This document shows positions 48,452 to 63,517 of a DNA stretch of 64,000 nt, one piece after another (within the stretch, counting starts at the first letter, position 1; each line of letters opens with the position of its first letter). A program made the position numbers and the translations under genes. The stretch spans positions 736,001 to 800,000 of the forward strand of contig CAVWWD010000003.1 of assembly GCA_963758635.1 (NCBI GenBank). The letters run 5' to 3'. Source of the DNA: an uncultured Candidatus Rokubacteria bacterium. Its GTDB lineage: Bacteria; Methylomirabilota; Methylomirabilia; Rokubacteriales; CSP1-6. The notes under the pieces were generated by a model. The model saw nothing but the letters and a program-made list of their open reading frames with translations. It was not told where the DNA came from and made no database searches.

Positions 48452-49498
48452 TCACCTCATGTGGGGGATCACCTCGTGGGTCAGCAGGTGGAGGCTCCGC
48501 GTCTCGAGCTCCTGCGGGATCAGCCCGCCGGGGTTCACCTCCACCACGAAGCCGTCCAGGCCCAGCTCGTCCCGGATCTGACCGAGCCGCTCGATCACCT
48601 GCGCCGGCGTGCCGAACGCCACCTTGCGGGCCAGCATGTCGTCGTAGGTGAGGCCGGCCATGCGCTCGGCCTGGGCGCTCCGCCGGTCGGCGGGGCCCGC
48701 GCCGGCGCGCCCCACCGCGGAGCGGGCCAGGTTCGTCTGGCGGCCGAAGAACGCGTGGAGGCTCTCGCGCGGCTCCTCGCGCGCGCCGTCCTCGGTGGGC
48801 GACACGTACACGGGAATGCGCAGGTACACGCTCGGGGCGCCCGTGTGACCGGCCTCGCGCCAGGCGTCGCGGAACGGTCCGAGCGCCCGCTTCACGTCGG
48901 AGATCTCGGTGGCGCGCAGGCCGACGAAGATCGGCAGCCCGAGCCGCCCGGCGATCGGGTACGTCTCGTCGCTCGTCGCCGCCATGCGGACGGGCGGATG
49001 CGGCACCTGGAAGGGGCGCGGCGCCACCGTGGTCTCCGCGACGCGGTAGAACTCGCCCTCGTAGCTGAACGGCTCGCCCGTCCACGCGCGGCGGATGATC
49101 TCCAGCGCCTCGCGGAAGCGCGCCTGGCTCTCCGCGTACGGCACGCCGTAGATGTCGTACGAGCGCACCACGCCGCTCCGTCCGATGCCGAACTCGAAGC
49201 GCCCCTCGCTGATCTGGTCGACGGTGGCCACCTCCTCGGCGATGCGGAGGGGATGGTTGAGCGGCAGCACCTGCACGGCCGTCCCCACGTGGACGCGCCG
49301 GGTGCGCGTGGCGATGGCGGTGGCGACCTGGAGCGACGCCGAGATCACGGATCGGCCCGGCGTGAAGTGGATCTCGCCCAGCCAGACGCAGTCCATCCCC
49401 CAGGCCTCGGCCTTCTCCGCGAGCCCGAAGACGTCGCGGAAGGCGGCGGGCTGGGTGACCCCCTGACGAAGCTCCTCGACGAAGAGCCCGAAGTGCAT
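48452..49498 (-). CDS. LLM class flavin-dependent oxidoreductase
   Basis: MHFGLF, WLGEIHF, HPLRIAEE.AT.D..S.GR...G.GR and FGTP. Confidence 0.9.
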   Translation of the reverse strand: MHFGLFVEELRQGVTQPAAFRDVFGLAEKAEAWGMDCVWLGEIHFTPGRSVISASLQVATAIATRTRRVHVGTAVQVLPLNHPLRIAEEVATVDQISEGRFEFGIGRSGVVRSYDIYGVPYAESQARFREALEIIRRAWTGEPFSYEGEFYRVAETTVAPRPFQVPHPPVRMAATSDETYPIAGRLGLPIFVGLRATEISDVKRALGPFRDAWREAGHTGAPSVYLRIPVYVSPTEDGAREEPRESLHAFFGRQTNLARSAVGRAGAGPADRRSAQAERMAGLTYDDMLARKVAFGTPAQVIERLGQIRDELGLDGFVVEVNPGGLIPQELETRSLHLLTHEVIPHMR

Positions 49499-49591
49499 GA
49501 GCGAGACCTTTCTGTCGGTCCGCATCATTCGCGAATGAAAGCGGACCCTTGGCACTGCGTCAGCCCGGTGCCCTGGGCATGCATGGGCACC

Positions 49592-50104
49592 TCAGGGGGC
49601 GTCCGCGATGTCGCGCGCGTGCGCGAGCACGTGCATCACCGCCACCTGGAGGAACACGGCGGCGAGGGGGCCGGTGACGCCGCCGGCCGAGCGGATGGGG
49701 CGGGCGAAGAGCGTCTCGTCGGCCGCCTCCACCGCGGCGATGGTCGCGGCGCGATTCCGCTCGAACTCGGCGATCAGCTCGGCTACGGGGAGGCCGGCGC
49801 GCTTGGCGACCTGGCGATCGTTGTAGGAGTCGTTGCCGCCACGCATGGCGCGCGTGGGCGGATCCCCCGGCGGCGCCGGCGCGGCGCTCGGCGCCCCCGC
49901 GTCGCGCGCGATGTCGATGAGCCGCGGATACGTCCACTCGATCGACGCGATGTGCGCGAGGATCTGGCGCCCGTTCCAGCCGTTCTCGTAGCGGCCTTCC
50001 TCGAGGCGCTCGGGCGCGAGGGCCCGGAGCGCGGACAGCACCTCGTCGCGGCTGGCACGGAGCGCCGTGAGCAGCTCGCCCTTGGACGGCGCGGGATCGG
50101 TCAC
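49592..50104 (-). CDS. DinB/YfiT-like family protein
   Basis: GWNGRQILAHIA and C-terminal H...H...I. Confidence 0.75.
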   Translation of the reverse strand: MTDPAPSKGELLTALRASRDEVLSALRALAPERLEEGRYENGWNGRQILAHIASIEWTYPRLIDIARDAGAPSAAPAPPGDPPTRAMRGGNDSYNDRQVAKRAGLPVAELIAEFERNRAATIAAVEAADETLFARPIRSAGGVTGPLAAVFLQVAVMHVLAHARDIADAP

Positions 50105-50580
50105 AGCGGGATGGCCAGGAGCGTGTCGATGCGGCTACTGTCGCAGACCACGATGCGCTCGCGCAGGCGCAGGACGCCGTCCTCCTCCACCACCGCGTCC
50201 AGGTAGCGGCCGGTGGCGAAGATGTCCATGCGCCCGTCGCGCATGATGCGCACGACGAGGAAGGGCGTCTCCACCCGGGCGATCCCGTCCGCCTCGGACA
50301 GCACGGCGGGCATGCCGACCACGTGGCGGTACGCCTGGCGCTCGTAGATGTTGGCGCGGCGCAGCGCGGCCACGCGGTCCTCGAGCATGCCCTTGCCGTC
50401 CGCGTACATGAGGCCGGCGGGCATGCCGCGCCGGTGGTTGTCGGCCGAGGTCACCTTGTAGAGGCACTCGTCGGCGAAGAAGCCCGGCCAGTCCTCGAGG
50501 CGGTCGTCGTCCAGCGCGCGGGCGTAGTCGGCGTTGAGCTGCCACACCAGGGGAAGGAGGTGCGCCGGGGCCAGGGCCAT
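50101..50580 (-). CDS. Aromatic-ring-hydroxylating dioxygenase beta subunit (TphA3/AndAd-like)
   Basis: YARALDDD.LEDWP.FF, ML.DR...LR.ANIYE and DS..IDTLLAIPL. Confidence 0.9.
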   Translation of the reverse strand: MALAPAHLLPLVWQLNADYARALDDDRLEDWPGFFADECLYKVTSADNHRRGMPAGLMYADGKGMLEDRVAALRRANIYERQAYRHVVGMPAVLSEADGIARVETPFLVVRIMRDGRMDIFATGRYLDAVVEEDGVLRLRERIVVCDSSRIDTLLAIPL

Positions 50581-50590
50581 CGGCCGCGCC

Positions 50591-51832
50591 TCAGTGCCCC
50601 ATGTAGCGGCGATAGGCCTTCCAGAAGCCGCGCACCGACGCCTCGGTGGCGCGGGTCTCCTGGGACTCGGCGCCCTCGCCGCCCATGTTGACCACCGACA
50701 CCTCGTCGCCCGCGGTGGCCGCGCCGCGCTGGACGAAGCCGCCCACGCAGCCGTCCTCCATGGAGACGTAGCCGGCGGGCCCGACCAGGTTCGCCTGCTT
50801 GAGGCGCAGCCGCCGCAGCTCGGGGGTGTCGTCGGCGAAGCCCAGGTAGGTCCAGTTGAGATCCATCGCTCCCGGTCCGCGCGGCACCACCTGCCGGACG
50901 GCGAGGGAGTTGTGGATCTGCTGGAGCACGAAGCCCGGGAACACGGTGAGGATCTGGAGCTGGATGTCGTCGCCCATCTCGTTCACGGAGTCGAGCAGGC
51001 TCGGATCGGCGAGGCGGTAGCCCTGGTGCTCGGAGCGGATGCCCTGCTCGCGGTACGCGGAGCTGGTGCGGTCGTCGGCGCGGTCGATCGTGTAGCTCGC
51101 GTGGTGGCCGCCGTCCGGGCTCACGAGCACGCCGCCGCCCTGGGTGAGGCGGGTGATCCGGAACGTGCCGAAGAACGCGTGGAGCAGGCTCGCGTGGTAC
51201 GTGTCCTTCACGTTCTCGATGTAGAGCTTCCAGTTGTTGGGCAGGGCCTGGGTGAAGCGGCCGAGCACCTCCACGGGGCGGCGCAGCACGCGCCGGATGC
51301 GGCCGAGCACCTCCTCGCCCAGGTACTCCTCGATGGGCGGCGTGGCGTCGCACAGGGTGACGAAGACGAGCCCGCAGAGGGTGGTGGTGCGCAGCCGCCG
51401 CGGGCCGTGCGCCGCCTTGTCGAAGGAGGCAGGCATGCCGCCCTTGCCGTTGGCGCCCTTCTCGAACGCGATGCCGACGAGGGCGCCCTCCAGGTCGTAG
51501 CTCCACGCGTGGTACACGCACTGGAACCGTCGGTCGACGTGGCCGGCGTCGTCGAGCGCGATGAGGGCGCCGCGGTGCGCGCAGCGGTTCTCGAAGGCGT
51601 GGATCGCCCCGCCGGCGCCGCGCGCCACGATGATCGGCATCTCGCCGACGAACGTGGTGCGATAGTCCCCGGGCTCCGGGACGTCCGACTCGAGGCACGC
51701 GTAGTTCCACACCGGGCCCTCGAAGATGCGCCGCAGCTCGTCCCGGTAGTTGGCCTCGTCTTGATAGACCCAGTACGGCACGCGGGCCAGGCCCTCTCCG
51801 GGCCAGGCGCGCTGCGGGGCGGAGATGCTCAT
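50591..51832 (-). CDS. Rieske ring-hydroxylating dioxygenase alpha subunit, terephthalate 1,2-dioxygenase (TphA2)-like
   Basis: Rieske motif CAHRG...CVYH; NWKLY.ENVKD.YHASLLH; C-terminal [14 protein letters not shown] resembles TphA2 as I recall it. Confidence 0.88.
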
Positions 51833-51928
51833 GCGGAGCTCCTTTGGCGGCGGCGACGCGGGTGAAGAGGAGGATAGCACTAGCAAATGACTCCCGCAGA
51901 ATTGCGTCACAGCGCCTGCCTCGTGGAA

Positions 51929-52244: not shown

Positions 52245-52931
52245 ATGACGGACGCCTCCGCTCGTAGCGCCCGCGGCCCCCGGCGGCTCCTGGGGCTTGC
52301 CTTCCGTGGGCTTCCCGTCCTGCTCGCCCCGTGCGCGCGGGCGCGCCGGCTGTTCTTCTACGAGAGCGACCTGGACGGTCCGCTGCCGCCGCTCCCCCCG
52401 CCCTCGGTGCCCCTCGACCTCCACGTGGCGACGCGTGACGAGCTCCTGGCCCGGGCCGAAGAACTGCCCGGCTTCGGCGTGGACGTGGAGGAGGCGGTCC
52501 GGCGGCTGGACGAGGGGGACGTCGCCATCGTCGGGATCGTCGAGGGCGCCCTGGCCCACCTGCAGTGGATCTCGTTCCGCTCGCCGTGGGTGAACGAGAT
52601 CGGCGTCACCCTCCGTCTCGCCCCCGGCGAGTCGACGGCCTACGGCGCCTTCACCGCGCCCGCCTGGCGCGGCCACGGCATCCACGCCCTCGCCAGCCGG
52701 TTCCTCAACGAGGAGCAGCGACGGCGAGGCGCCACCCGGATGGTGGCCTGGGTCTGGGCGAGCAACCGGGCGAGCCGGCGCGTGTTGTTCGCCAAGCTCG
52801 GCCGGCGCCGGACCAAGACCGTCTGGTCCCTCTGGGTCCTCGGCATGCGCCGGCCCCTCCTCATCGGGGCCACTGCCACCGGCTCGCCCAGCCTCGCGCG
52901 CGGCGGCCCCGACGTGGCGCCGCCGCCTTGA
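52245..52931 (+). CDS. GNAT family N-acetyltransferase
   Basis: FTAPAWRGHGI (acetyl-CoA motif A) and NRASRR. Confidence 0.75.
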   Translation: MTDASARSARGPRRLLGLAFRGLPVLLAPCARARRLFFYESDLDGPLPPLPPPSVPLDLHVATRDELLARAEELPGFGVDVEEAVRRLDEGDVAIVGIVEGALAHLQWISFRSPWVNEIGVTLRLAPGESTAYGAFTAPAWRGHGIHALASRFLNEEQRRRGATRMVAWVWASNRASRRVLFAKLGRRRTKTVWSLWVLGMRRPLLIGATATGSPSLARGGPDVAPPP

Positions 52932-53114
52932 CAGGCCGCCGCGGCGGGGCGCGAATCCCTTACCGGCATCCGGCTGGATCAGCTCATCGAGCGCGTCCGC
53001 GCGCCGCGCCAGGTGGACGGAGGCGGCGCCAAGGACGGCGAGCGCTCGAGCTGACGGTCCCGCGCCGGCGCCGATCTCACGCCCTCGTGCCGGGGCGAGG
53101 CGGGCGCGGCGGAT

Positions 53115-55046
53115 TCAGGGCTGACGGATGGTGAGGAGAGGCTCGGCGGTCACCCGGCCCGTGTCGGCGCCGGCGCTCACGCAGGCCAGGTGCGTGGCAA
53201 CGAAGTCCTTGAACTCGGGCAGCATGACGTAGCCCGGCGGCACGTACGTGACGCGGAGCGGCCTGGGCTCGGGCACGCCGGGCGCGCCGGCCGCGGCGTA
53301 GGCCGGCCAGTCGCGCTCGACCTCGATCGTGACCGGCTCCGTCTGGCCGAAGCGCGGCGTGACGAGCCGCTGGAACCGGAACAGCTCCACGACGTCGGAG
53401 GGGTCGAGCCCGCGTTCCTCGAGGAAGCATCGAGTGTGCGCCTCGGCTTCACGGAGGAACGCGTCGGGGGCGGCGAGCACGGTCACCGCCAGGGCCTCCG
53501 CGACCTCGAGCGACCCCGAGCCCATCAGCGGGTGGGGCAGCGTGAACGGCCCGCACGCCAGGATCGAGTCGAGATAGCCGTCCACGAGCCGGCCCACGGC
53601 GGCGAAGCGCGTCTCGCCGGGCTCCTGCGTCCGCTCGCCGAGAAACGCCAGGTAGTCGACGATGTCCACGCCCGCCGCCTCGCCCAGCCAGTGCAGGACC
53701 ACGCGGAGCAGGCGCAGGTTGTAGGCGGCGCCGGCGAGGGCCACGAACCGGTACGTGCGCCGCCACTCGGGGATCGGCATGTCGCGGGTGCCCACGACGA
53801 GGTCCTGGTACTCCTCGATCACCGCGTCCCAGGCCGGGTTCGCCGAGGGCCAGCGCACGCGCCGCGTCTCGATCCCGAACTCCTCGATCGATGCGGGCGA
53901 CGCCAGCTCGGTGTTGTCGAGGAGCCGGCACTGGAACACGACGAAGCTGTGGCGGGGATGGGGCGGCATCGCCTGCGCGACGGTGCGGGCGAAGGACGCG
54001 AACGTCTGCCGCGGCAGGCCGAAGATCAGCTCGTTCCGTGTCGCGATGCCCCGCTCGGCGCAGATGTCCCGCAGGCGGATCGACTCGCCGCTCTGGATGT
54101 TGTCGCGCTTCACCGCGGCCAGCACGTCGTCGTCGAAGTCCTGCACGGCGAGCCCGACGCAGCAGCCGATGCCCGCCTCGTGCAGGATCTCGATCGTCCC
54201 GAGGTTCCGGCGGTGGTTGTTCTTGGTCAGGTAGAAGTAGCAGAAGCTCGGGTGTCCGGTGCGGGCCCGGAGCTCGGCCATGTGGCGCGCGATGTCGTGG
54301 TCGCGGGGACGGATGCCGAAGTTCGCGTCGGCGATGCACACGTGCCCGAAGTCGTGCGCGGCGATCCACTCGAGCTCGGCGATGACGCGCTCGAGCGGAA
54401 GCTCGACGACCTCGCGGGTCAGCGACCAGTCGCAGAACGTGCAGGTGAACGGGCACCCGCGGTTCGTCTCGAGGAGCGCCATCGTGAACCGCGCGCGGTC
54501 CCGGGCGACGAGCGCGTCGAACGTGCCGTCGAGGTAGGGGGAGGCCGTCTCCGACAGGTCGCGCACGCGCGCGGGCGGGCGGGTGAGGCGTACCTCTCCG
54601 CGGCGCCGCCACGCGATGCCGCCCACGCCGTCCAGGTCCGCCCCCCGGACGTGCGCGACCAGGAGGTCGCGGAACGCGAGCTCGCCCTCGGAGAGGACCA
54701 GCACGTCCACCTGCGGGTGCGCGTCGAGGAACCGCCGGGCCGAGGCCGGACGCCGCGGGACCGACGGGCCTCCGGCCACGACGAGGCAGTCTGGATGCGC
54801 GGCGCGCGCGGCGCGGGCGACGTCGAGCGAGTAGGCGGTGTTCCACGGGTACAGCGAGAAGCCGAGGACGTCCGGCGCGCCGTAGGCGGCGACGGCACGG
54901 TCGATGGCCTGGCGCTGCACGTGGATCGAGAAGCGCGCGGCGGACAGCGCCGGCGCCTGCTTCGCGGCGGCGACGATGCAGCCGGCGGCGAGGGGAAGAC
55001 CGGGCGTGTTGTCGATGCCCTCGAACTGGCTGACCACGACCTTCAT
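53115..55046 (-). CDS. Cobalamin-binding radical SAM protein with a long C-terminal extension
   Basis: B12-type N-terminus (GFSLYPWN, VAGGP, EGE); ETNRGCPFTCTFCDW; IADANFG; ELIFGLP. Confidence 0.9.
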   Translation of the reverse strand: MKVVVSQFEGIDNTPGLPLAAGCIVAAAKQAPALSAARFSIHVQRQAIDRAVAAYGAPDVLGFSLYPWNTAYSLDVARAARAAHPDCLVVAGGPSVPRRPASARRFLDAHPQVDVLVLSEGELAFRDLLVAHVRGADLDGVGGIAWRRRGEVRLTRPPARVRDLSETASPYLDGTFDALVARDRARFTMALLETNRGCPFTCTFCDWSLTREVVELPLERVIAELEWIAAHDFGHVCIADANFGIRPRDHDIARHMAELRARTGHPSFCYFYLTKNNHRRNLGTIEILHEAGIGCCVGLAVQDFDDDVLAAVKRDNIQSGESIRLRDICAERGIATRNELIFGLPRQTFASFARTVAQAMPPHPRHSFVVFQCRLLDNTELASPASIEEFGIETRRVRWPSANPAWDAVIEEYQDLVVGTRDMPIPEWRRTYRFVALAGAAYNLRLLRVVLHWLGEAAGVDIVDYLAFLGERTQEPGETRFAAVGRLVDGYLDSILACGPFTLPHPLMGSGSLEVAEALAVTVLAAPDAFLREAEAHTRCFLEERGLDPSDVVELFRFQRLVTPRFGQTEPVTIEVERDWPAYAAAGAPGVPEPRPLRVTYVPPGYVMLPEFKDFVATHLACVSAGADTGRVTAEPLLTIRQP

Positions 55047-55153
55047 CGGTGGCCCATCTTGCCACAGAGGATGACGCCGCGTCCGGGCGCCGGCGGACGC
55101 GGAGCGGCCGTGGCCGCGGGGTCGGCCGCGGGGGTGGGTGCTATGCTCGCCGC

Positions 55154-55960
55154 GTGTCCCGGATCTTCGAGGGATCGCCGCGTCGCCCCGCGGGCCGCGG
55201 TCGGATGAGCGTCAGCGGGGCGGCGTTGGCCGATGATCGACGCCGGCGCGCGGATGCGCTCCGCGTCGACGGCTTCTGCGCGACCGACCGAGTCTTCACG
55301 CCCGTGCAGCTCGACGCGGCGCGCGCCGCCGCCGACCGCATCCTCCACGCCCATGGCGTGTCGAGCGAGTTCGCCCTGATCGCGCTCGACGCCTGGCGCC
55401 GTGAACCGGCGCTGCGCGAGCTGCTGCTGCCGCTCGCCCGGATCGCCCGTGAGCTCATGGGCCTCACCGAGGTCCTCGTCTTCCAGGACCTCGTGATCGA
55501 CAAGCGTGCGGTCTCGGCGGCACCGATGCCCTACCACCAGGACCAGTCCTACCTGCCGCTCGATCGCGATGACGGCCTCGTCGCCTGGGTGGCGCTCGAC
55601 GACGCCGACACGGCGCGCGGCTGCCTGCGCTACGCCCCTGGCACGCACCGGCTCGGCGCGCGCCGGCCGGCCCGATTCTCCGACGCGCCATCGCGCGACA
55701 CGCACCTGCCGGCGATCGAGGTCGACGAGCGTACGGTGGTCAGTGTCCCCGCGGTGGCCGGGCAGGCGCTGTTCCACAGCACGCGGGTCTGGCACGGGTC
55801 GCCGCCCAACACCACCGACCTGCCACGGCGGGCGTGGTCGATCTACTTCTTGCCTCCGAGCGTCCGGTGGGCGCCGGAACGCGCGGCGCATCCGTACCTC
55901 CTCGAGCTGGCGCCGGCGGCGGGCGATCCGGTGTCCGGGGACCGGTTTCCCCGGTTCTGA
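55154..55960 (+). CDS. Phytanoyl-CoA dioxygenase (PhyH) family 2OG-Fe(II) oxygenase; start GTG 55154 or ATG 55205
   Basis: PYHQD (HxD), WVALDD...GCL...PGTH, WHGS.PN and RRA. Confidence 0.9.
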   Translation: MSRIFEGSPRRPAGRGRMSVSGAALADDRRRRADALRVDGFCATDRVFTPVQLDAARAAADRILHAHGVSSEFALIALDAWRREPALRELLLPLARIARELMGLTEVLVFQDLVIDKRAVSAAPMPYHQDQSYLPLDRDDGLVAWVALDDADTARGCLRYAPGTHRLGARRPARFSDAPSRDTHLPAIEVDERTVVSVPAVAGQALFHSTRVWHGSPPNTTDLPRRAWSIYFLPPSVRWAPERAAHPYLLELAPAAGDPVSGDRFPRF

Positions 55961-56018
55961 CCGAACGCGCGAGACCCGAGCAGCGACACGATCCTGACGC
56001 AGCGCACGAGACCTGTCC

Positions 56019-57635
56019 ATGGATCGCGCCCTCGAAGGGCATCACCGCTACCTGATCGTGAGCCGCGAGGTATGCGCGCGGCGCCCGCTCGTGCACGCGC
56101 ATCAGCTCGCCGCCCTCGAGCGCGAGATCGCGTTGACCGAGAGCGCCGACGGGGTCATGCGCTATCGGGTGGCCAGCGGCGACTCGTTCGAGCTGACGCG
56201 CGCGGCCTGGCTGGACCGACTCGTGAACCACGCCCGCGTCGGCGCTCTGGTCGGCGACCGCTGGAGGGTCCGGGCCTCCGCGCTGGAGTACGCGCACGCC
56301 CTCGAGGCCTCGGGCCACGACGACTGGCCGGGCATGCTCCACGCCGGCGCCGCGCAAGCCGCGCCCCTGATCGTGAGCGGCGGCGAGACCGCGGCGATGT
56401 TCACGCGGCTGCTCCTGAACGTGCTCCGTCACCGCGAGGAGCAGCGCGCCGCCCTGCAGGACCAGTTCCGCGCCGGGGCGCTCGACGCCTATCGCGGTCT
56501 CCGGTCCGCCGATCCCGCGTTCGCGTGGTCGCGGGTGCTTGACCGGCCGCACTACGCGCTGCGCACGCCGTGGACCGGTCCCGGATTGCAGGCGATCGGG
56601 GCGTGGATGGAGGAGCTCGGCGGCGATGCGGCCGTGCGACACGCGGATACGCCCGAGGACGCTGTGGGCGACAGTGATGTGCTTGCGGCCATGGCGGCCT
56701 CCGAGGCGCGATGGCGGTCGCAGCTCCCGCAGCGTCCCCCCGGCCCCCTCCTGCCCGACGTCGCACACGACGACGTCGCCGCGCCGTACCGTACCCTGGC
56801 CGAGACCACGCCGGGCGACGGACGCGCGGCGGAGGCGACACGCCGAGCCGCCCGGGCCCTTCTCGCCGCGAGCGCCGATGCGCCCTCGCCGCAACACGCC
56901 CTGGCCCGCCTCGTCGGTGACGGCTTGCTGGCGGAGCTGGCGGCCGCGCCCCTGCGCGCGCACGCCGAGGAGAGCCTCGAGCGCCAGGTCGTCTGGCCCG
57001 ATCCGCTCGTGGAGCGACATCACCGGAACGTGTTGGACACGCTCCGTGACGTCCGGACGGCCACCGAGGTCGATCTCGTCGCCACCCACGCCAGCGCGTG
57101 CTTCGCCGTCGAGGCGGACTGGAACGTCCTGTACCTGTCGAGCCTGTTCGGCCCGCTTCGCGCCGCGTGCGCGCTCGGGGCGGACGACAGCATCGCCGTG
57201 CGCACGAATCTCCACCGGGCGGCGGACGTGACCTACCGCCTGCTGGGACTCACGCCGTGGAGTCTCCTCACGGCTCCGCGCGTGGCCGAGTTCATCGCCC
57301 GCGTCCTTGCTCCCCTGGCGGGTCGCGAGAACCTGAGCATCGGCGGCTTCCGGGGTGAGGGCGGGTTCGACTTCTTCGGCGAGGCGCGGGTGTGGGTGGC
57401 CGTGGCGCGGGCGGCAGGTCGCTTGAAGGAGTTCGATGCTCGGATCGCGGCCGAGGGGATGTCGGCGCTGTGCGAGCGCGCGGGCCTCGTGAAGCGGACC
57501 CCATCGCCGCGGTCCATGACCCTGTGGGGCGTCCCCGTCGCACCGGAGGATCCTCGACGCGAGCCCGCGTGGCCGCGGCGTCCGCCGATTCCCGGAATCG
57601 ACACGCCGCCCGGGGGCGAAGGTCGCGGCCTTTAG
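56019..57635 (+). CDS. Hypothetical protein, 538 aa
   Basis: Long ORF in line with the flanking + strand genes; no family recognised. Confidence 0.7.
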   Translation: MDRALEGHHRYLIVSREVCARRPLVHAHQLAALEREIALTESADGVMRYRVASGDSFELTRAAWLDRLVNHARVGALVGDRWRVRASALEYAHALEASGHDDWPGMLHAGAAQAAPLIVSGGETAAMFTRLLLNVLRHREEQRAALQDQFRAGALDAYRGLRSADPAFAWSRVLDRPHYALRTPWTGPGLQAIGAWMEELGGDAAVRHADTPEDAVGDSDVLAAMAASEARWRSQLPQRPPGPLLPDVAHDDVAAPYRTLAETTPGDGRAAEATRRAARALLAASADAPSPQHALARLVGDGLLAELAAAPLRAHAEESLERQVVWPDPLVERHHRNVLDTLRDVRTATEVDLVATHASACFAVEADWNVLYLSSLFGPLRAACALGADDSIAVRTNLHRAADVTYRLLGLTPWSLLTAPRVAEFIARVLAPLAGRENLSIGGFRGEGGFDFFGEARVWVAVARAAGRLKEFDARIAAEGMSALCERAGLVKRTPSPRSMTLWGVPVAPEDPRREPAWPRRPPIPGIDTPPGGEGRGL

Positions 57636-57665
57636 GGCCCCCGGAGGCTGTGCTATCCTCCCCCC

Positions 57666-58040
57666 ATGTCGGTCTCGAAGTCCGCGGTCGGATCAGAGCC
57701 CTCCACACCCTCCGATGCCGTCGGCCTGGCCCACGGGCGCCGGCTCACCGTCGACTCCGCGGGTGGCGAGCAGGTCGTCGAGATCCGCGGAGCCTCGGGC
57801 GCGGTGGAGCTCCGCGTGAAGATCACCGAGGAGGGCCCGGTGCTGCTCGTCGAGGCCGTCCGGATCGCGCTGAAGGCCGCCGACGCGGTGGACATCGACT
57901 GCACGCGCTTCCGGGTGAGCGCCTCGCAGTCGATCGAGCTGGCATCGCAAGGGCCGGTCCAGGTGACCGGTGGCGCGGACGTCGGCGTCAACGCGAGCGG
58001 CGAGGTGCACGTCAAGGGCGAGATGATCTACCTGAACTGA
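57666..58040 (+). CDS. Small protein resembling a gp5/VgrG C-terminal beta-helix (spike tip)
   Basis: Repeated ~8-residue beta units (IALKAADA-VDIDCTR-FRVSASQS-IELASQGP-VQVTGGAD-VGVNASGE-VHVKGEM-IYLN); lies immediately 5' of PAAR. Confidence 0.65.
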   Translation: MSVSKSAVGSEPSTPSDAVGLAHGRRLTVDSAGGEQVVEIRGASGAVELRVKITEEGPVLLVEAVRIALKAADAVDIDCTRFRVSASQSIELASQGPVQVTGGADVGVNASGEVHVKGEMIYLN

Positions 58041-58049
58041 GGCCCCGTC

Positions 58050-58436
58050 ATGCCCCCCGCGGCCCGAATGACCGACCTCGTGATGCACGATAGCCCGCAC
58101 TGCCATGCGCCGATCCATCCGCCCGCCCCGGTTCCCACGCCGATCCCGCATCCCTGCGTGACGCACCCGATCATGATGGCCTGCGTCCCGACCGTCATGG
58201 TCAACCATCTGATGTCCGCCGTCGTCAGCAGCATGACCATCCCCTGCCTGGAGGTTCCCTGCGTGCCCGGCGGGCCCGGCCTGGTCGCGAAGGGCTCGGC
58301 GACGGTGCTGATCGGGGCGATGCCCGCCGCTCGCATGGGTGACATGGTCGCCTTCGCCTCCTGCGTCGCCCCGATCCCGAGCCCCACCGGCAAGATCCTT
58401 CCGCCCTGCTCCCCTACCGTGATGATCGGCGGCTGA
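58050..58436 (+). CDS. PAAR domain protein
   Basis: PAARMTD, GSATVLIGAMPAARMGD and C-terminal SPTVMIGG. Confidence 0.93.
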   Translation: MPPAARMTDLVMHDSPHCHAPIHPPAPVPTPIPHPCVTHPIMMACVPTVMVNHLMSAVVSSMTIPCLEVPCVPGGPGLVAKGSATVLIGAMPAARMGDMVAFASCVAPIPSPTGKILPPCSPTVMIGG

Positions 58437-58441
58437 GCCGG

Positions 58442-59512
58442 GTGCGCCGCGAGCATCTCGAACGACTCCAGCCGCTCTGCCCCGTCTGCCGCGCCCGCGG
58501 GCGCGGGCCGCAGCCCCTCGTGACGGGCACGGTCGTCCGCGCCGACGGCGACGACATCCTGGAAGGCGTGCTGCTGTGTCCCGAGCGCGCCTGCCAGCGC
58601 GAGCACCCGATCATCGACGGGATCGCCGTGGTGGTCGCCGACATCGCGACCTGGGCGGCGCATCAGCTCGACGCGGTGATGCGCCGCGAGGACCTCTCGC
58701 CGTTCATGGAGAGCCTGCTCGGAGACGCCGCCGGTCCCGGGTCCAGCTTCAACAACGAGCGGGCCAACCTCGGTAGCTACGCGCGGAGCCACTGGGAGGA
58801 CGCGGAGGGGCCGGCCGCGCGCGACGGCAGCCTCGCCGGGCTCTTGAACGCGGGGCTCGAGCTGCTCGGAGAGCCGCCGCGCGGCGTGTGGGCCGACATC
58901 GGCTGCGCGGTGGGGCGCGGCGCCTTCGAGCTCGCGCGGCGGACGGGCGACCTCGCGGTCGGCGTCGACCTCAACTTCGCCATGCTCCGCGTGGCCGAGC
59001 GGCTGCGCCGGCAGGGACGGGCCGCCGTCCCGGTGCGGCGGGTGGGCGTCGTGTTCGATCGCCGGGAGGTGACGATGCCCGACCTGCCGGGCGAGCGCGT
59101 GAGCTTCTGGTGCTGCGACGCCGCCGCGCTGCCCTTCGCGGATGCCGCGTTCGACGGCGCGCTCAGCCTGAACGTGCTCGACTGCGTCCAGTCCCCCGTC
59201 GGTCACCTGGTCGAGCTGGGCCGCGTCCTCGCCCCGCGGGCGCGCGCGCTGCTCGCCTCGCCGTACGACTGGACGCCCACGGCGACGCCGCTCGCCGAGT
59301 GGCTCGGCGGGCACTCACAGCGCGCGTCCTCGCACGGATCGAGCGCGGCCGAGCTGCGCCGGGTCCTGTCGCGCGACGCGGCGGCCGGGATCGATACCGG
59401 GCTGGTGGTCGTGGCCGAGCGCGATCGCGTGCCGTGGCGCGTCTACACGAACGAGCGCGCCACCATGGACTACGCCGTCGACCTGCTGTGCCTGGAGCGG
59501 AAGCAGGCCTGA
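58442..59512 (+). CDS. Class I SAM methyltransferase with an N-terminal Trm112-like Cys knuckle
   Basis: LCPVC...EGVLLCPERAC..EHPIIDGI; DIGCAVGR; DAAALPFADAAFD; NVLDC. Confidence 0.85.
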   Translation: MRREHLERLQPLCPVCRARGRGPQPLVTGTVVRADGDDILEGVLLCPERACQREHPIIDGIAVVVADIATWAAHQLDAVMRREDLSPFMESLLGDAAGPGSSFNNERANLGSYARSHWEDAEGPAARDGSLAGLLNAGLELLGEPPRGVWADIGCAVGRGAFELARRTGDLAVGVDLNFAMLRVAERLRRQGRAAVPVRRVGVVFDRREVTMPDLPGERVSFWCCDAAALPFADAAFDGALSLNVLDCVQSPVGHLVELGRVLAPRARALLASPYDWTPTATPLAEWLGGHSQRASSHGSSAAELRRVLSRDAAAGIDTGLVVVAERDRVPWRVYTNERATMDYAVDLLCLERKQA

Positions 59513-59523
59513 CCGGGTCCGGC

Positions 59524-60864
59524 TCAGCCCTTCCGCGCAAGCTCGTGGACGTGGTCCACGGCGCCGGATACCTGGTCCGGGGGCACCGTGCCGAGTCGAC
59601 GCTCGTGGAGCCGGCGTCGGAGCGCGGTGAAGCGGTCGTAGTACTCGCCGATGTCGTCGCGGGTCAGGTCGGGCAGGTCGAGGATCGACTCCCGATGGTT
59701 CGCCGGCCGCTCCAGGTAGTCCGCGGGCAGATAGCCCCGCTCCATGCACACGCGGAAGAGCTGCGTGCCCGGGTACGGGTAGAACACGAAGTACCCGAAG
59801 TCCAGCACGTCCAGCTCCTCGGCCAGGTCCAGGGTCTGCGCGCAGGTCGTCCCGCGTCTCGCCGGGCAGGCCGAGCATGAAGTTGGCCGTGAGCAGGATG
59901 CCCGCCTCGCGCGTCCACCGGAACACGTCGCGGAAGCGCTGGTTGGTCACCGGCCGGTGCATGACCTCCCGTCGCACGCGCTCGCTGCCGCTCTCCACGC
60001 CGTAGGTGATCTGCTTGCACCCCGCCGCCGCGAGCACGCGCAGCAGCTCCGCGCTCACCGTCTCCACGCGCGCGTGCAGGCAGAACGGCGCGCCGACCTC
60101 GGCGCCGTAGACGCGGCAGAACTCCTTCACCCACGGGTGATGGATCGTGAACGTGTCGTCCAGGAAGATCACGTACCCGAGCCGGTCCTGCTGCGCGGAG
60201 CTCCGCCAGCTCGGCGAGCACGTTCGCGTGCGAGCGCCGGCGCCCGTACTCCTCGCCGGTCGCGTCGTACAGCTCGTTGTACATGCGTGCGGCGCAGTAG
60301 GTGCAGGGGAACGGGCAGCCGCGCTGCGTGGTCATGTGCACGGTGCCCCGGGGCTCGTCGAGGAGGTCGCGCGCCATGAAGGGCAGGCGGTCGATCGGCG
60401 CGAGCGGCGGGCGCAGCGCGGGACGGACGCCGCCGCGCGGCCACACGTTGCGGATCCCGTGGGCCGACGCCCCGCGCGAGAGCGCCTGCGACCAGGTCGA
60501 GCATCGGCTCCTCGCCCTCGCCCAGGCACACGTAGTCGAAGCCCGGCGCCGCGAGCACCGCCTCGGGCGCGAACGTCGGGTGGAGCCCGCCGGCGATGAC
60601 GGGCACGTCGATCCGCGCGCGGATCTGCGCCGATCAGGTGCCGCGCGCGCTGCCACTGGCGGGTCGTCAGCGAGACGCCGACGATGTCGGGCCGCTCGGC
60701 GGCCACCGCGGCCACCACCGCGTCGTCGCTCAGGTCGATCGCCGGCGCGGAGGAGCCGCGACCTCGTGCCCGTGCGCGCGGAGCCAGGCGCCGATGAACG
60801 CGGGTCCGATCGAGGCGACCGCCCAGGACCGCTCCGTGTCGACTTCCAGGAACAGCACGCGCAC
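59524..60864 (-). CDS. Cobalamin-binding radical SAM protein; several frameshifts
   Basis: PDIVGVS, IAGGLHPT, GEGE, TQRGCPFPCTYC, FLDDTF, GVESGS and FMLGLPGET across frames; AGGAGG RBS. Confidence 0.87.
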
Positions 60865-60875
60865 GACGGGGCCTC

Positions 60876-62507
60876 CTACCTCAGCATCAGCTCGCGGTAG
60901 CCGCCGGCGGCCACGCGGTCACACCACTCGCGGTACTCGGGCGCCGTGCCGCTGTAGCGGGCGATGATGCGCGTCTGCTTGCCCTCGACGTTCATGTTGA
61001 CGCCCGTCATCCAGGAGTCGACCTCGTTGGCGAGCAGGCCCTCGCCCTTCTTCTTGACGAACTCCGTCCATTCCTCCACGGCGTCCGGCCGCGCGTCGGC
61101 GACGCCGAGACCGCGCCGCTCCAGGTAGCCGAGGAGGTCGCGGATCCACTCCACGTTGTACTCGACGCTCCGCGGGATGTTGCCGAGCGCGGTGTGCGGC
61201 CCCATCACCATGAAGAGGTTGGGGAAGCCGTCGACCATCACGCCCATGAACGTGGCGGGGCCGCCCTTCCATCGGTCCTTGAGCCGTTGCCCGCCCCGGC
61301 CCCGGATGTCGATCCGGTCGAGGCTGCCGGTGATGGCGTCGAAGCCGGTGGCGTAGACGATCAGGTCGAGCTCGAACTCCCGGTCCGTGGTGCGCACGCC
61401 GGTCCGGGTGATGCGCTCGATGGGCGTCTCGAGGATGCTGACGAGCTCGACGTTCGGCTGGTTATACACCTCGTAGTAGTGCGTCTCCTGCGGCACCCGG
61501 CGTGTGCCGAACCCGTGGTCCTTCGGGATCAGGAGCTCCGCGACGCGCGGATCCTTGACCCGCTGGCGGATCTTGTCGGCGACGAAGGCGGAGAAGAGCG
61601 CGTTCGCCTCCCGGTCGATGAGCACGTCGCGGAAGTTGCCCATCCAGATGGCGAAGCCGGGCGCGGCGTAGAGCGTCTCCCAGAACGCCTGGCGCTCCTC
61701 CGGGCTCACCTCGAAGGTCCCGCGGGGGTCGGTGTTGTGCAGGAAGCAGGCGGCCGTCTCCCGGCAGCGCTCCCACAGCGCCGGGTAGCCCGTGCGGATC
61801 TCGTCCATCTCCGCGCGGCTGATCCGCCGGTTGTGCAAGGGCGTGCACCAGTTCGGGCGCCGCTGGAAGACGGTGAGGTGGGCCGCGGTCTTGGCGATCT
61901 CCGAGATCGCCTGCACGCCCGTCGCCCCGGTGCCGATGACGCCCACGCGCTTGCCCTCGAAGCTGACGGGGTGCTTGGGCCAGAGCCCGGTGTGATGCGC
62001 CTCGCCCTGGAAGTCGTCGACGCCCGGGATCCGCGGCAGGGTCGGCGCGGACAGCGGGCCCACCGCGGTGACGAGGTAACGCGATCGGGAGCGGCGGCCG
62101 TCCTCGAGCGTGATGTCCCACGCGAGCGCCGCATCGTCCCAGACCGCGGCCGTCACGCGGCTCCGGAACCGGATGTCCCGTCGCAGGTCGAACCGGTCGG
62201 CGACGTGGTTGAGGTAGCGCTCGGTCTCCGGCTGGGGCGCGAAGTGCTCGGTCCAGTCCCACTCGTCGAGAAGGTCCTGGCTGAAGGAATAGCCGTAGGA
62301 GTAGCTCTCGGAATCGAATCGGCACCCTGGATAGCGGTTCCAGTACCAGGTGCCGCCGACCCCGGTCCCGGCCTCGAACACGCGGACCTCCTGGCCCAGC
62401 TCGCGCAGGCGGTAGAGCTGGTAGAGCCCCGAGATGCCCGCCCCGATCACGGTGGTGTCGTGATCCAGGCCGTGGCCCGTGGAGGTCGGTCGAGGGTCGG
62501 GCGCCAC
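60876..62507 (-). CDS. Baeyer-Villiger monooxygenase (cyclohexanone monooxygenase-like); start approximate
   Basis: GAGISG, GGTWYWNRYPG, BVMO fingerprint FQGEAHHTGLWP, GTGATG and ATGFD. Confidence 0.93.
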   Translation of the reverse strand: MAPDPRPTSTGHGLDHDTTVIGAGISGLYQLYRLRELGQEVRVFEAGTGVGGTWYWNRYPGCRFDSESYSYGYSFSQDLLDEWDWTEHFAPQPETERYLNHVADRFDLRRDIRFRSRVTAAVWDDAALAWDITLEDGRRSRSRYLVTAVGPLSAPTLPRIPGVDDFQGEAHHTGLWPKHPVSFEGKRVGVIGTGATGVQAISEIAKTAAHLTVFQRRPNWCTPLHNRRISRAEMDEIRTGYPALWERCRETAACFLHNTDPRGTFEVSPEERQAFWETLYAAPGFAIWMGNFRDVLIDREANALFSAFVADKIRQRVKDPRVAELLIPKDHGFGTRRVPQETHYYEVYNQPNVELVSILETPIERITRTGVRTTDREFELDLIVYATGFDAITGSLDRIDIRGRGGQRLKDRWKGGPATFMGVMVDGFPNLFMVMGPHTALGNIPRSVEYNVEWIRDLLGYLERRGLGVADARPDAVEEWTEFVKKKGEGLLANEVDSWMTGVNMNVEGKQTRIIARYSGTAPEYREWCDRVAAGGYRELMLR

Positions 62508-62509
62508 GG

Positions 62510-63517
62510 TCAGGCGACGGGCGTGGCGAGCTCGACCGCGCGGACGGTCCGGAGCCGGCGCGCCACCGCGTCGAGGGTGCGCCGCCGGTCGCGGAAGAAG
62601 AACACCTCGACGATGTGGCCGCCGGAGCGCAGGCTCAGCCGGTCGAAGAGGAAGCCGGAGCGCGTTCGCACCTCGTCCACGTGCGCCACGTCCACCGCGT
62701 ACTCGCGCACGCCGAAGCCGCGCCGCGCCAGGAACACCAGGCGACCACCCGCGAGGCAGAGATAGCCCATCGTCCACGCCGGCGCGCCGACCGCGCGCCC
62801 TCCAAGGCAGCGCACCGCGAAGTCGCCGGGGACGCCGAAGCCCGGCGGCAGGAGCTGCGCGTGGCCCGGCGGCACCGCGTCGAAGACGTCGTCGGGCGGG
62901 GCCTCCCGGCCCGACCACACACGCGCCAGCGCGGCGAGCGCGAGGATCTGCGCGCGCAGGAGCCGGAACAGCCGGGGCGCCACCAGGGCGAAGGCGCCCG
63001 CGAAGCTCGCGGCGAGCACGCCGGCGAGCACGGGATGGGCGAGGGCCAGCCACACGCCGGTGACCGCCACGACGTCCTCGGCCAGCGAGAGGAAGATGTT
63101 GCTGAACGGCTCCGGGCTGCCGTTGGCCACCAGGCGCACGCCGGCCTTGGTCGTGTGCGTGGCCAGCGCCACGCCGCCGGCCAGCAGGAACGCCGCCACC
63201 TCGAGGGCGGGATCGACGCTGCCGAGGGCGGCCGCGCCCAGGCAGGCCGCGCCGAGCGGCCGGATGAACGTGTGGAGCGCGTCCCACGCGCTGTCCACCC
63301 AGGGGATCTTGTCGGCGAAGAACTCCACGACGTAGAGCGTGCCCGCCACGATCAGGACGAGGGGGTGGCCGAGGACGGCCAGCCCCTGGAGCTGGGGCGA
63401 GAGGTGGATCATCCCGGTGGCGACGCCGAAGCCCACCGCGAACACGGTGGCGTAGAGGTTGATCCCGGCCACCGCGCCCAGGCCCATGGCCGTGCCGAGG
63501 AGCTGGATGGTTTCCAT
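62510..63517 (-). CDS. DUF4126 family membrane protein with a C-terminal extension
   Basis: GINLYAT, EFFADKIPWVDSAWD..HTFIRP and EP.SN...S..ED. Confidence 0.88.
   Translation of the reverse strand: METIQLLGTAMGLGAVAGINLYATVFAVGFGVATGMIHLSPQLQGLAVLGHPLVLIVAGTLYVVEFFADKIPWVDSAWDALHTFIRPLGAACLGAAALGSVDPALEVAAFLLAGGVALATHTTKAGVRLVANGSPEPFSNIFLSLAEDVVAVTGVWLALAHPVLAGVLAASFAGAFALVAPRLFRLLRAQILALAALARVWSGREAPPDDVFDAVPPGHAQLLPPGFGVPGDFAVRCLGGRAVGAPAWTMGYLCLAGGRLVFLARRGFGVREYAVDVAHVDEVRTRSGFLFDRLSLRSGGHIVEVFFFRDRRRTLDAVARRLRTVRAVELATPVA

Follow-up and report, generated by a model that had tools for sequence, protein, structure and literature searches.

PAAR proteins, which tip the spikes of contractile injection systems such as type VI secretion systems (T6SS) and the extracellular contractile injection systems (eCIS), are viewed as passive sharpeners, stabilised by zinc, and as hooks for effectors. 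Each binds one zinc through four ligands. Among the closest described systems are the Tvp systems, composed of TvpA (DUF2169) and TvpC (DUF3540 or DUF6484); according to the main text of their description, TvpC is a short VgrG mimic proposed to keep PAAR in a pre-complex until VgrG replaces it (Monlezun et al., EMBO J 2026, PMC13373197). A second kinship leads to OvoA, described in PMC10696552 as containing a methyltransferase domain. The window analysed here is the whole 64,000-nucleotide stretch G000:C3:736001-800000, from a 6.17 Mb assembly that is 87% complete. It holds a PAAR gene followed by a gene for a class I S-adenosylmethionine (SAM) methyltransferase, accompanied by a short spike-like gene (the mini-spike) and several enzyme genes. 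The PAAR-methyltransferase pair is the centre of a genuine and widespread cassette that seems to be undescribed and is associated with contractile injection systems; there is a fair chance that it will reveal a spike tip matured by enzymes. A preliminary description of the region had named its open reading frames, and all of them were found where it had placed them, with the same 9- and 5-nucleotide (nt) gaps.

The PAAR tip protein (58050..58436, + strand; 128 amino acids [aa]) belongs to a highly conserved, His/Cys/Pro-rich subfamily and matches PF05488 at E 3.5e-8. Its gene lies 9 nt behind the mini-spike gene and 5 nt ahead of the methyltransferase gene (58442..59512, +; 356 aa). A search seeded with the methyltransferase confirmed 418 stretches in the genome collection (genome_contigs), and a scan of part of the metagenomes confirmed 452. 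From each set the best 80 were analysed (160 loci), a sample biased to close relatives. Among loci with 250 nt or more of upstream sequence, 76 of 78 from genomes and 67 of 68 from metagenomes have a PAAR gene directly before the methyltransferase gene (143/146 assessable loci). The reverse test, seeded with PAAR, has the methyltransferase next in 18 of 22 loci, and one of the four exceptions is cut by the contig end. Record titles place the carriers in at least eight phyla: Pseudomonadota, Acidobacteriota, Myxococcota, Chloroflexota, Thermodesulfobacteriota, Nitrospinota, Planctomycetota and Verrucomicrobiota. The PAAR-methyltransferase linkage is far beyond chance, and a chance neighbourhood was rejected as the cause of the gene grouping.

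The remaining genes are linked to this pair less tightly. The mini-spike, scored in loci with a 900 nt flank, lies upstream of the pair in 47/74 genome loci and 27/49 metagenome loci. A B12-binding radical SAM enzyme (radical SAM 2) is present in 24/59 genome and 7/23 metagenome loci that are well flanked, and it tracks the mini-spike (22 of 37 spike-bearing loci versus 2 of 22 spike-free ones). A 538-aa orphan, scored in loci with 2.5 kb, is found upstream of the mini-spike in 23/66 genome and 10/32 metagenome loci. Close homologues of a second such enzyme (radical SAM 1) occur at 5 of the 160 loci, two of them apparently from one organism, and those of a PhyH-family dioxygenase at 9 of 160. 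The conserved core is PAAR plus the methyltransferase, the mini-spike and radical SAM 2 form a frequent pair, and radical SAM 1 and PhyH are rare accessories. The preliminary description had drawn all of these genes, together with a GNAT-like gene, into one cluster whose linkage should recur across genomes. Recurrence holds for the core, but radical SAM 1 and PhyH proved rare, and GNAT, with homologues at 0/160 related loci, was rejected as a member. A cultured carrier, Piscinibacter sakaiensis 201-F6 (L049), has radical SAM 2, orphan, mini-spike, PAAR and methyltransferase at the locus and TssC in its genome.

Several variant layouts were observed. At L199 a 220-aa gp5-OB-like gene (424-1086, -) stands back to back with a subfamily PAAR gene (1501-1884, +), and no methyltransferase follows the PAAR. 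At L205 (1021-3381) unrelated genes and no methyltransferase follow the mini-spike and PAAR, and TssC is on the same contig (G668:C180); this is possibly an effector-bearing form. An 82-aa beta-prism-end protein directly precedes the methyltransferase at L079 (9628-9876), with no PAAR between them, near DUF6931, VgrG and ClpV. Two records labelled 'uncultured Enterobacterales' (L011 and L034) seem mislabelled; the genome of L011 (G153) fell in the Myxococcales phylum sample described below.

The AlphaFold2 (AF2) model of the PAAR protein (pLDDT 88) matches PAAR 4jiw_D with VIA Z 14.6 and a root mean square deviation of 1.6 Å over 93 aligned residues. This match and a PF05488 score above the cut-off indicate that the window protein has true PAAR repeats and, as modelled, the conical fold; from fold and context it would cap a VgrG/gp5 trimer. 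It is the sole PF05488 match in its genome. H17, C18, H19, H34, C66, C71 and C105 are invariant in 111/111 PAAR homologues and H23 is present in 109/110, and the HCH motif is retained even in more distant members. The nearest solved PAAR by sequence, SalCis10, has counterparts for C18, H34, C66 and C71, and none for H17, H19, H23 or C105. Apparent N-terminal extensions on the PAARs of L038, L044 and L054 are opposite-strand shadow frames and not real. Median identity across the same 23 loci is 75% for PAAR, 52% for VgrG and 52% for the methyltransferase. Conservation of PAAR above VgrG and the enzyme is what a recognised substrate would be expected to show.

Pfam and NCBIfam assign the methyltransferase to class I with a weak Trm112-like N-terminus. 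That four-Cys domain bears out the Cys-knuckle of the preliminary description: C13, C16, C46 and C51 are invariant in 111/111 methyltransferases, as are the SAM-motif residues D152, G154, G158 and D226. The match to TIGR04345 has E 8e-22 and 77.9 bits, against a cut-off of 170. A profile search of the PDB returned 8khq (3e-29), 9bxh (6e-27) and 9bxl (1e-25), with the next match at 1e-13; these top three, at least 12 orders above the rest, are the thio/selenohistidine N-methyltransferases (OvoA C-terminal domain, OvsM and OvoM). By these sequence comparisons the enzyme is kin to the histidine-imidazole N-methyltransferases. A tree of 70 sequences, obtained by a quick search and excluding metagenome loci and loci outside the length filter, resolves two clades (support 99). 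The first lies largely within T6SS loci; the second (31 rows) includes the window and every one of the 24 rows that bear the orphan.

The reading that we favour, tentatively and at a little short of an even chance, is that the locus is an accessory cassette for a T6SS or eCIS tip, in which the methyltransferase modifies its own PAAR before the hand-over to VgrG. It is built on the PAAR fold, the fixed adjacency, the association with injection systems and the kinship of the enzyme, all observed; binding, substrate and chemistry we infer. The mini-spike would form a short trimeric beta-prism that holds the base of PAAR as a stand-in for VgrG, as TvpC does in Serratia. The methyltransferase would then use SAM to place a methyl group on a nitrogen of one of the additional invariant histidines (H17, H19 or H23), H34 being more likely a metal ligand than a methylation site. 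Radical SAM 2 where present, and more rarely PhyH and radical SAM 1, might contribute additional C-methyl or hydroxyl groups. After maturation the PAAR would pass to a VgrG whose gene is adjacent or distant, in the window genome to that of the T6SS on contig C6. The purpose, a guess, may be to tune or protect a second metal site formed from H17, H19, H23 and C105. A more elaborate proposal, possible but held with greater reserve, is a dedicated tip-maturation pathway of many phyla, in which a histidine of the PAAR held by the mini-spike would be N-methylated by an ovothiol-type methyltransferase and the protein then C-methylated or hydroxylated by B12 radical SAM and PhyH enzymes to give a modified, possibly second, metal site, a chemistry resembling that of ribosomally synthesized and post-translationally modified peptides (RiPPs). 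A complex prediction for PAAR and the methyltransferase scored 0.00 and was counted neither way.

The place of the enzyme directly after PAAR is where a cargo effector usually stands. The main rival explanation, which we consider unlikely, is accordingly that the methyltransferase is such an effector, carried on the PAAR tip to methylate a target in prey or host, with the mini-spike and radical SAM enzymes aiding loading or maturation. Its fixed position together with the T6SS context is the usual PAAR-cognate cargo layout, and its catalytic motif is intact. However, the gene downstream is variable or convergent and no conserved immunity-like gene is found there, although an effector directed at eukaryotes would not require one. 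Across eight phyla PAAR keeps the same enzyme family, without swapping, although at L205 and L199 other genes follow PAAR. The extra invariant His and Cys residues and the radical SAM partner would also be left unexplained by cargo. A family of 176-aa proteins (F14; L043:11114-11650, L142:5108-5638 and 7 more loci) follows the methyltransferase in Desulfobacterota/Nitrospinota-type loci; it has no Pfam or NCBIfam match, and by eye we take it to resemble DcrB/DUF1795-type chaperones.

The mini-spike (57666..58040, +; 124 aa) is a stand-alone VgrG/gp5-type beta-prism segment of TvpC/DUF3540-like character. Its profile matches VgrG 8gra (E 4.7e-6) and other VgrG/gp5 spikes. In the ESM Atlas it falls in a DUF3540 cluster at 0.91, a recognition below the tool's mark; the DUF3540 likeness is weak, and there is no PF04717 OB match. 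Its end resembles that of blunt VgrGs (KGEMIYLN versus KGSLVKIN). A broken vgrG fragment was considered and rejected: the protein has its own start and 22 close homologues of the same length, the upstream gene is the all-alpha orphan, and the family, with 906 clusters at 50% identity, is short and stand-alone, the best 150 of the 906 all measuring 81-220 aa. A pattern scan of genome_contigs for the mini-spike gave no match. At L162 (2-1912) a 636-aa VgrG-family protein with a mini-spike-like end precedes pentapeptide-repeat genes and a Tvp-like layout near the PAAR-methyltransferase pair.

The association with injection systems is visible in the window genome and beyond it. T6SS genes are missing from the window, as the preliminary description had noted, yet a full T6SS lies elsewhere in the genome, on contig C6. 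A Pfam scan of 16 proteins there matched 14 and identified VgrG, TssB, TssC, Hcp, ImpE/TagJ, TssE, TssF, a ClpV-type ATPase, Fha, TssM, TssL, TssK and TssJ. TssC occurs in just 7 of 150 related genomes, and the same 150 yielded no stand-alone mini-spike, the profile giving one weak, long-frame match. Because each is rare or absent among these relatives, the presence of both in the window genome gives modest support for a link. No DUF4150, DUF2169 or eCIS sheath match was found in this 87% complete genome. For the DUF4280 and eCIS-tube searches of the window genome no control genome matched; the tube model does match in other genomes. The only VgrG of the genome (G000:C6:123041-125338, -) runs on for about 130 aa past the beta-prism at its C-terminus, as does the 772-aa VgrG of L162. 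Within the C6 T6SS, between ClpV and Fha, lie a 500-aa DUF7059-MTS-DUF7782 methyltransferase gene (L215:733-2235, -; G000:C6:138733-140235) and a 366-aa gene without a family.

Among the genome loci, 31 of 80 have T6SS genes, 2 of the 31 by a ClpV/ClpB-type ATPase alone. In three Nitrospinota loci (L059, L068 and L070) VgrG, radical SAM 2, mini-spike, PAAR and methyltransferase follow one another on one strand. Fifty carrier genomes, drawn mainly from loci without T6SS neighbours, were searched for injection markers: 31 have TssC, 26 an eCIS-type tube (a model that may also match prophages) and 48 either. The preliminary description had called for such a comparison of carrier genomes. In a sample of 301 genomes from the phylum of G173 (a Myxococcales record), TssC or the eCIS tube is present in 22/22 carriers of the PAAR family and in 134/279 non-carriers. 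The three origins offered in that description were modification or small-molecule loading of the tip, spike parts repurposed away from injection, and a tip cassette auxiliary to an injection system located far away. The last is now best supported, by the C6 T6SS, the sole PAAR and the co-occurrence of markers, and would go together with modification of PAAR by the enzymes; repurposing has lost weight generally while keeping some plausibility for the orphan-bearing sub-clade. At Thermoanaerobaculia-type loci a PKMT-like protein lysine methyltransferase (PF10119, PF21782; family F11, L167:15107-16696 and 11 more loci) is encoded near vgrG, frequently beside eCIS-core (PF13699), peptidoglycan-binding and SLT genes. 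By its domains F11 is a second candidate for protein methylation at T6SS loci.

The orphan (56019..57635, +) bears on the repurposing idea directly. It has no Pfam match, is confined to the window's sub-clade and is modelled by AF2 as all-alpha (pLDDT 92.7, pTM 0.93). The best VIA Z was 6.7 with no clear fold match, which does not establish a new fold. The ESM Atlas gave no match, the PDB no significant sequence match and BLAST no internal repeat; a word search found 13 homologues only. In a rather improbable reading, this sub-clade has left injection, the mini-spike, PAAR and orphan forming an independent particle or scaffold with the orphan as modified substrate or cargo. The confinement of the orphan to one methyltransferase clade (24/31 rows, support 99) is consistent with this, as is the distribution of T6SS genes: at loci of at least 12 kb they lie near 0 of 19 orphan loci versus 26 of 38 others. 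The orphan is, however, weakly conserved (median identity 27%) and most loci lack it, L017 and L032 of the same clade sit directly before tssK, and the genomes tested from this clade carry TssC or the eCIS tube.

Radical SAM 2 (59524..60864, -) is frameshifted in the assembly; homologues have about 445 aa. Both B12 radical SAM genes of the preliminary description are present, but this one is broken into at least four frame pieces, and tblastn with an intact homologue aligns four pieces at 61-88% identity. The extra base at 59840 is absent from contigs of runs X1, X2 and X3 and that at 60194 from X1 and X3; a third break lies near 60480, and the comparison with other runs covers the first two. 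The breaks at 59840 and 60194 are likely assembly errors. Because other runs lack these extra bases, the gene is read as intact in nature, and a true pseudogene was rejected. Orthologues (E < 1e-150) occur in 39 of 80 carrier genomes (32/50 and 7/30), a count that is partly circular, the profile having been derived from these same loci. They are mostly absent from Thermoanaerobaculia carriers, and the enzyme is therefore not obligatory. In the 301-genome phylum sample radical SAM 2 is found in 13 genomes, the PAAR subfamily in 22 and both in 11. With four seed genomes removed, the PAAR family is present in 7 of 9 radical SAM 2 genomes versus 11 of 288 others. At L019 (5437-6849) and L023 (1686-3098) the place of radical SAM 2 is taken by another radical SAM family (470 aa, long branch), encoded after the methyltransferase and on its strand.

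The co-occurrence of radical SAM 2, far above background, also argues against the notion that the methyltransferase is a non-catalytic PAAR chaperone, a substitute for TvpA with the other enzymes as chance neighbours. We consider this very improbable. The Tvp systems, as presented in the main text of PMC13373197, show that PAAR proteins need stabilising partners, and the window genome has no DUF2169 match, but the SAM-binding and putative catalytic residues of the enzyme are invariant in 111 sequences.

The two accessory enzymes invite another explanation. Radical SAM 1 (53115..55046, -) is KedN5-like, scoring 217 bits to NF033712 (cut-off 700), and the PhyH-family iron/2-oxoglutarate (Fe/2OG) dioxygenase (55205..55960, +) matches PF05721 at E 8e-28. 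Its start is more likely ATG 55205 (251 aa), homologues having 245-255 aa. In L182 and L185 PhyH adjoins radical SAM 2. Both enzymes are typical of small-molecule tailoring, the nearest characterised relatives of the methyltransferase methylate a small molecule, and T6SS export of metal-binding proteins is known. The cassette enzymes might make or tailor a small molecule, such as a metal ligand or antioxidant of the methylated thiohistidine type; this would be loaded on a metal-binding PAAR exported for metal scavenging, or would work together with it. The eight conserved His and Cys residues of PAAR would suit such a role. This is also doubtful: no sulfoxide or selenoxide synthase, C-S lyase, ligase or carrier family is among the families that recur in the locus neighbourhoods, and the minimal form of the cassette is PAAR and methyltransferase alone.

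Several observations weigh against modification of PAAR by its neighbour. The substrate and modification are predictions from sequence kinship, the high conservation of PAAR might stem from metal binding alone, and the position of the enzyme and the T6SS-free orphan loci have been noted above. Two of the 50 carriers have neither TssC nor the eCIS tube. In the Bryobacter-like family TssC is already present in 105/151 genomes, so that co-occurrence does not discriminate there; the methyltransferase is in only 2/151. Radical SAM 2 is absent from 41 of the 80 carrier genomes, and kinship among genomes and their incompleteness mean that p values overstate the significance. The substrate of OvoM and OvsM, as given in their PDB names and in the text of PMC10696552, is free thio- or selenohistidine and not a protein.

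The surroundings of the cassette are ordinary. The GNAT-like gene (52245..52931, +) has a weak Pfam match (E 0.036) and is probably outside the system. The left flank within the window (48452-51910, -) encodes a luciferase-like monooxygenase, DinB and the alpha and beta subunits of a Rieske ring-hydroxylating enzyme, and the right flank (60876-63517, -) a flavin monooxygenase and DUF4126; 11 nt separate the stop of the flavin monooxygenase from the start of radical SAM 2. A scan for promoters and terminators found none. Contigs of one RNA run span the cassette, which by themselves do not show transcription.

No description of the cassette was found in the literature searched, which includes few subscription journals; to this extent the proposal that the module is undescribed has held up. 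The words 'methyltransferase' and 'radical' are absent from the main text of PMC13373197. Neither 'methyltransferase', 'methylat' nor 'radical SAM' occurs in the accessible text of a 2026 review of T6SS accessory factors (PMC13584744), and in that of bioRxiv 10.1101/2023.03.26.534264 methyltransferases appear only in an unrelated fold match. The link of this PAAR subfamily to a single enzyme in eight phyla, with PAAR more conserved than VgrG at the same loci, suggests that the tip has a function not yet recognised. Should the enzyme methylate PAAR, this would be an enzymatic maturation of a structural part of the T6SS or eCIS, which was not found in the literature searched, and the enzyme would belong to a branch of the ovothiol methyltransferase family that acts on proteins. 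Should it be an effector, it would represent a widespread new class without immunity. Either outcome is testable in Piscinibacter sakaiensis 201-F6.

The cassette shares features with four described types of system. As in RiPP maturation of the proteusin type, a B12 radical SAM enzyme, a class I methyltransferase and an Fe/2OG oxygenase stand beside a small, very conserved protein. The putative substrate, however, is the folded, structural PAAR with no split into leader and core, no peptidase or exporter recurs at the loci, and no RiPP radical-SAM model reaches its cut-off. The methyltransferase shares the N-terminal Y..H/W-G helix and the N-(V/L)-(L/I)-D, (S/T)PY.W and W-(L/I)-GG motifs with the OvoA C-terminal domain, OvoM and OvsM (8KHQ, 9BXL, 9BXH), but adds the four-Cys Trm112-like domain and an invariant GGHSQR loop, falls below the TIGR04345 cut-off and has no ovothiol genes near it.

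In the Tvp systems a short VgrG mimic is encoded beside a PAAR gene; in the cassette the mini-spike, which is weakly DUF3540-like, may be its counterpart. The systems differ in their partners, which in the cassette are enzymes, and in the mini-spike, which has no OB-fold match. DUF2169 was found neither in the 87% complete window genome (no PF09937 match) nor among 49 neighbour representatives scanned, the long pentapeptide protein of L162 excluded. The window PAAR is of the PF05488 type and not DUF4150, with no PF13665 match in the genome and one homologue at 21 bits versus a 31-bit cut-off. The cassette may work like Tvp, but without DUF2169 it is not a Tvp member. Orphan or auxiliary vgrG-PAAR-effector islands differ in carrying a full VgrG and a recognisable toxin-immunity pair, with a variable effector downstream where the cassette has one fixed methyltransferase family; like them, the cassette places tip genes away from the main cluster, which they would serve in trans.

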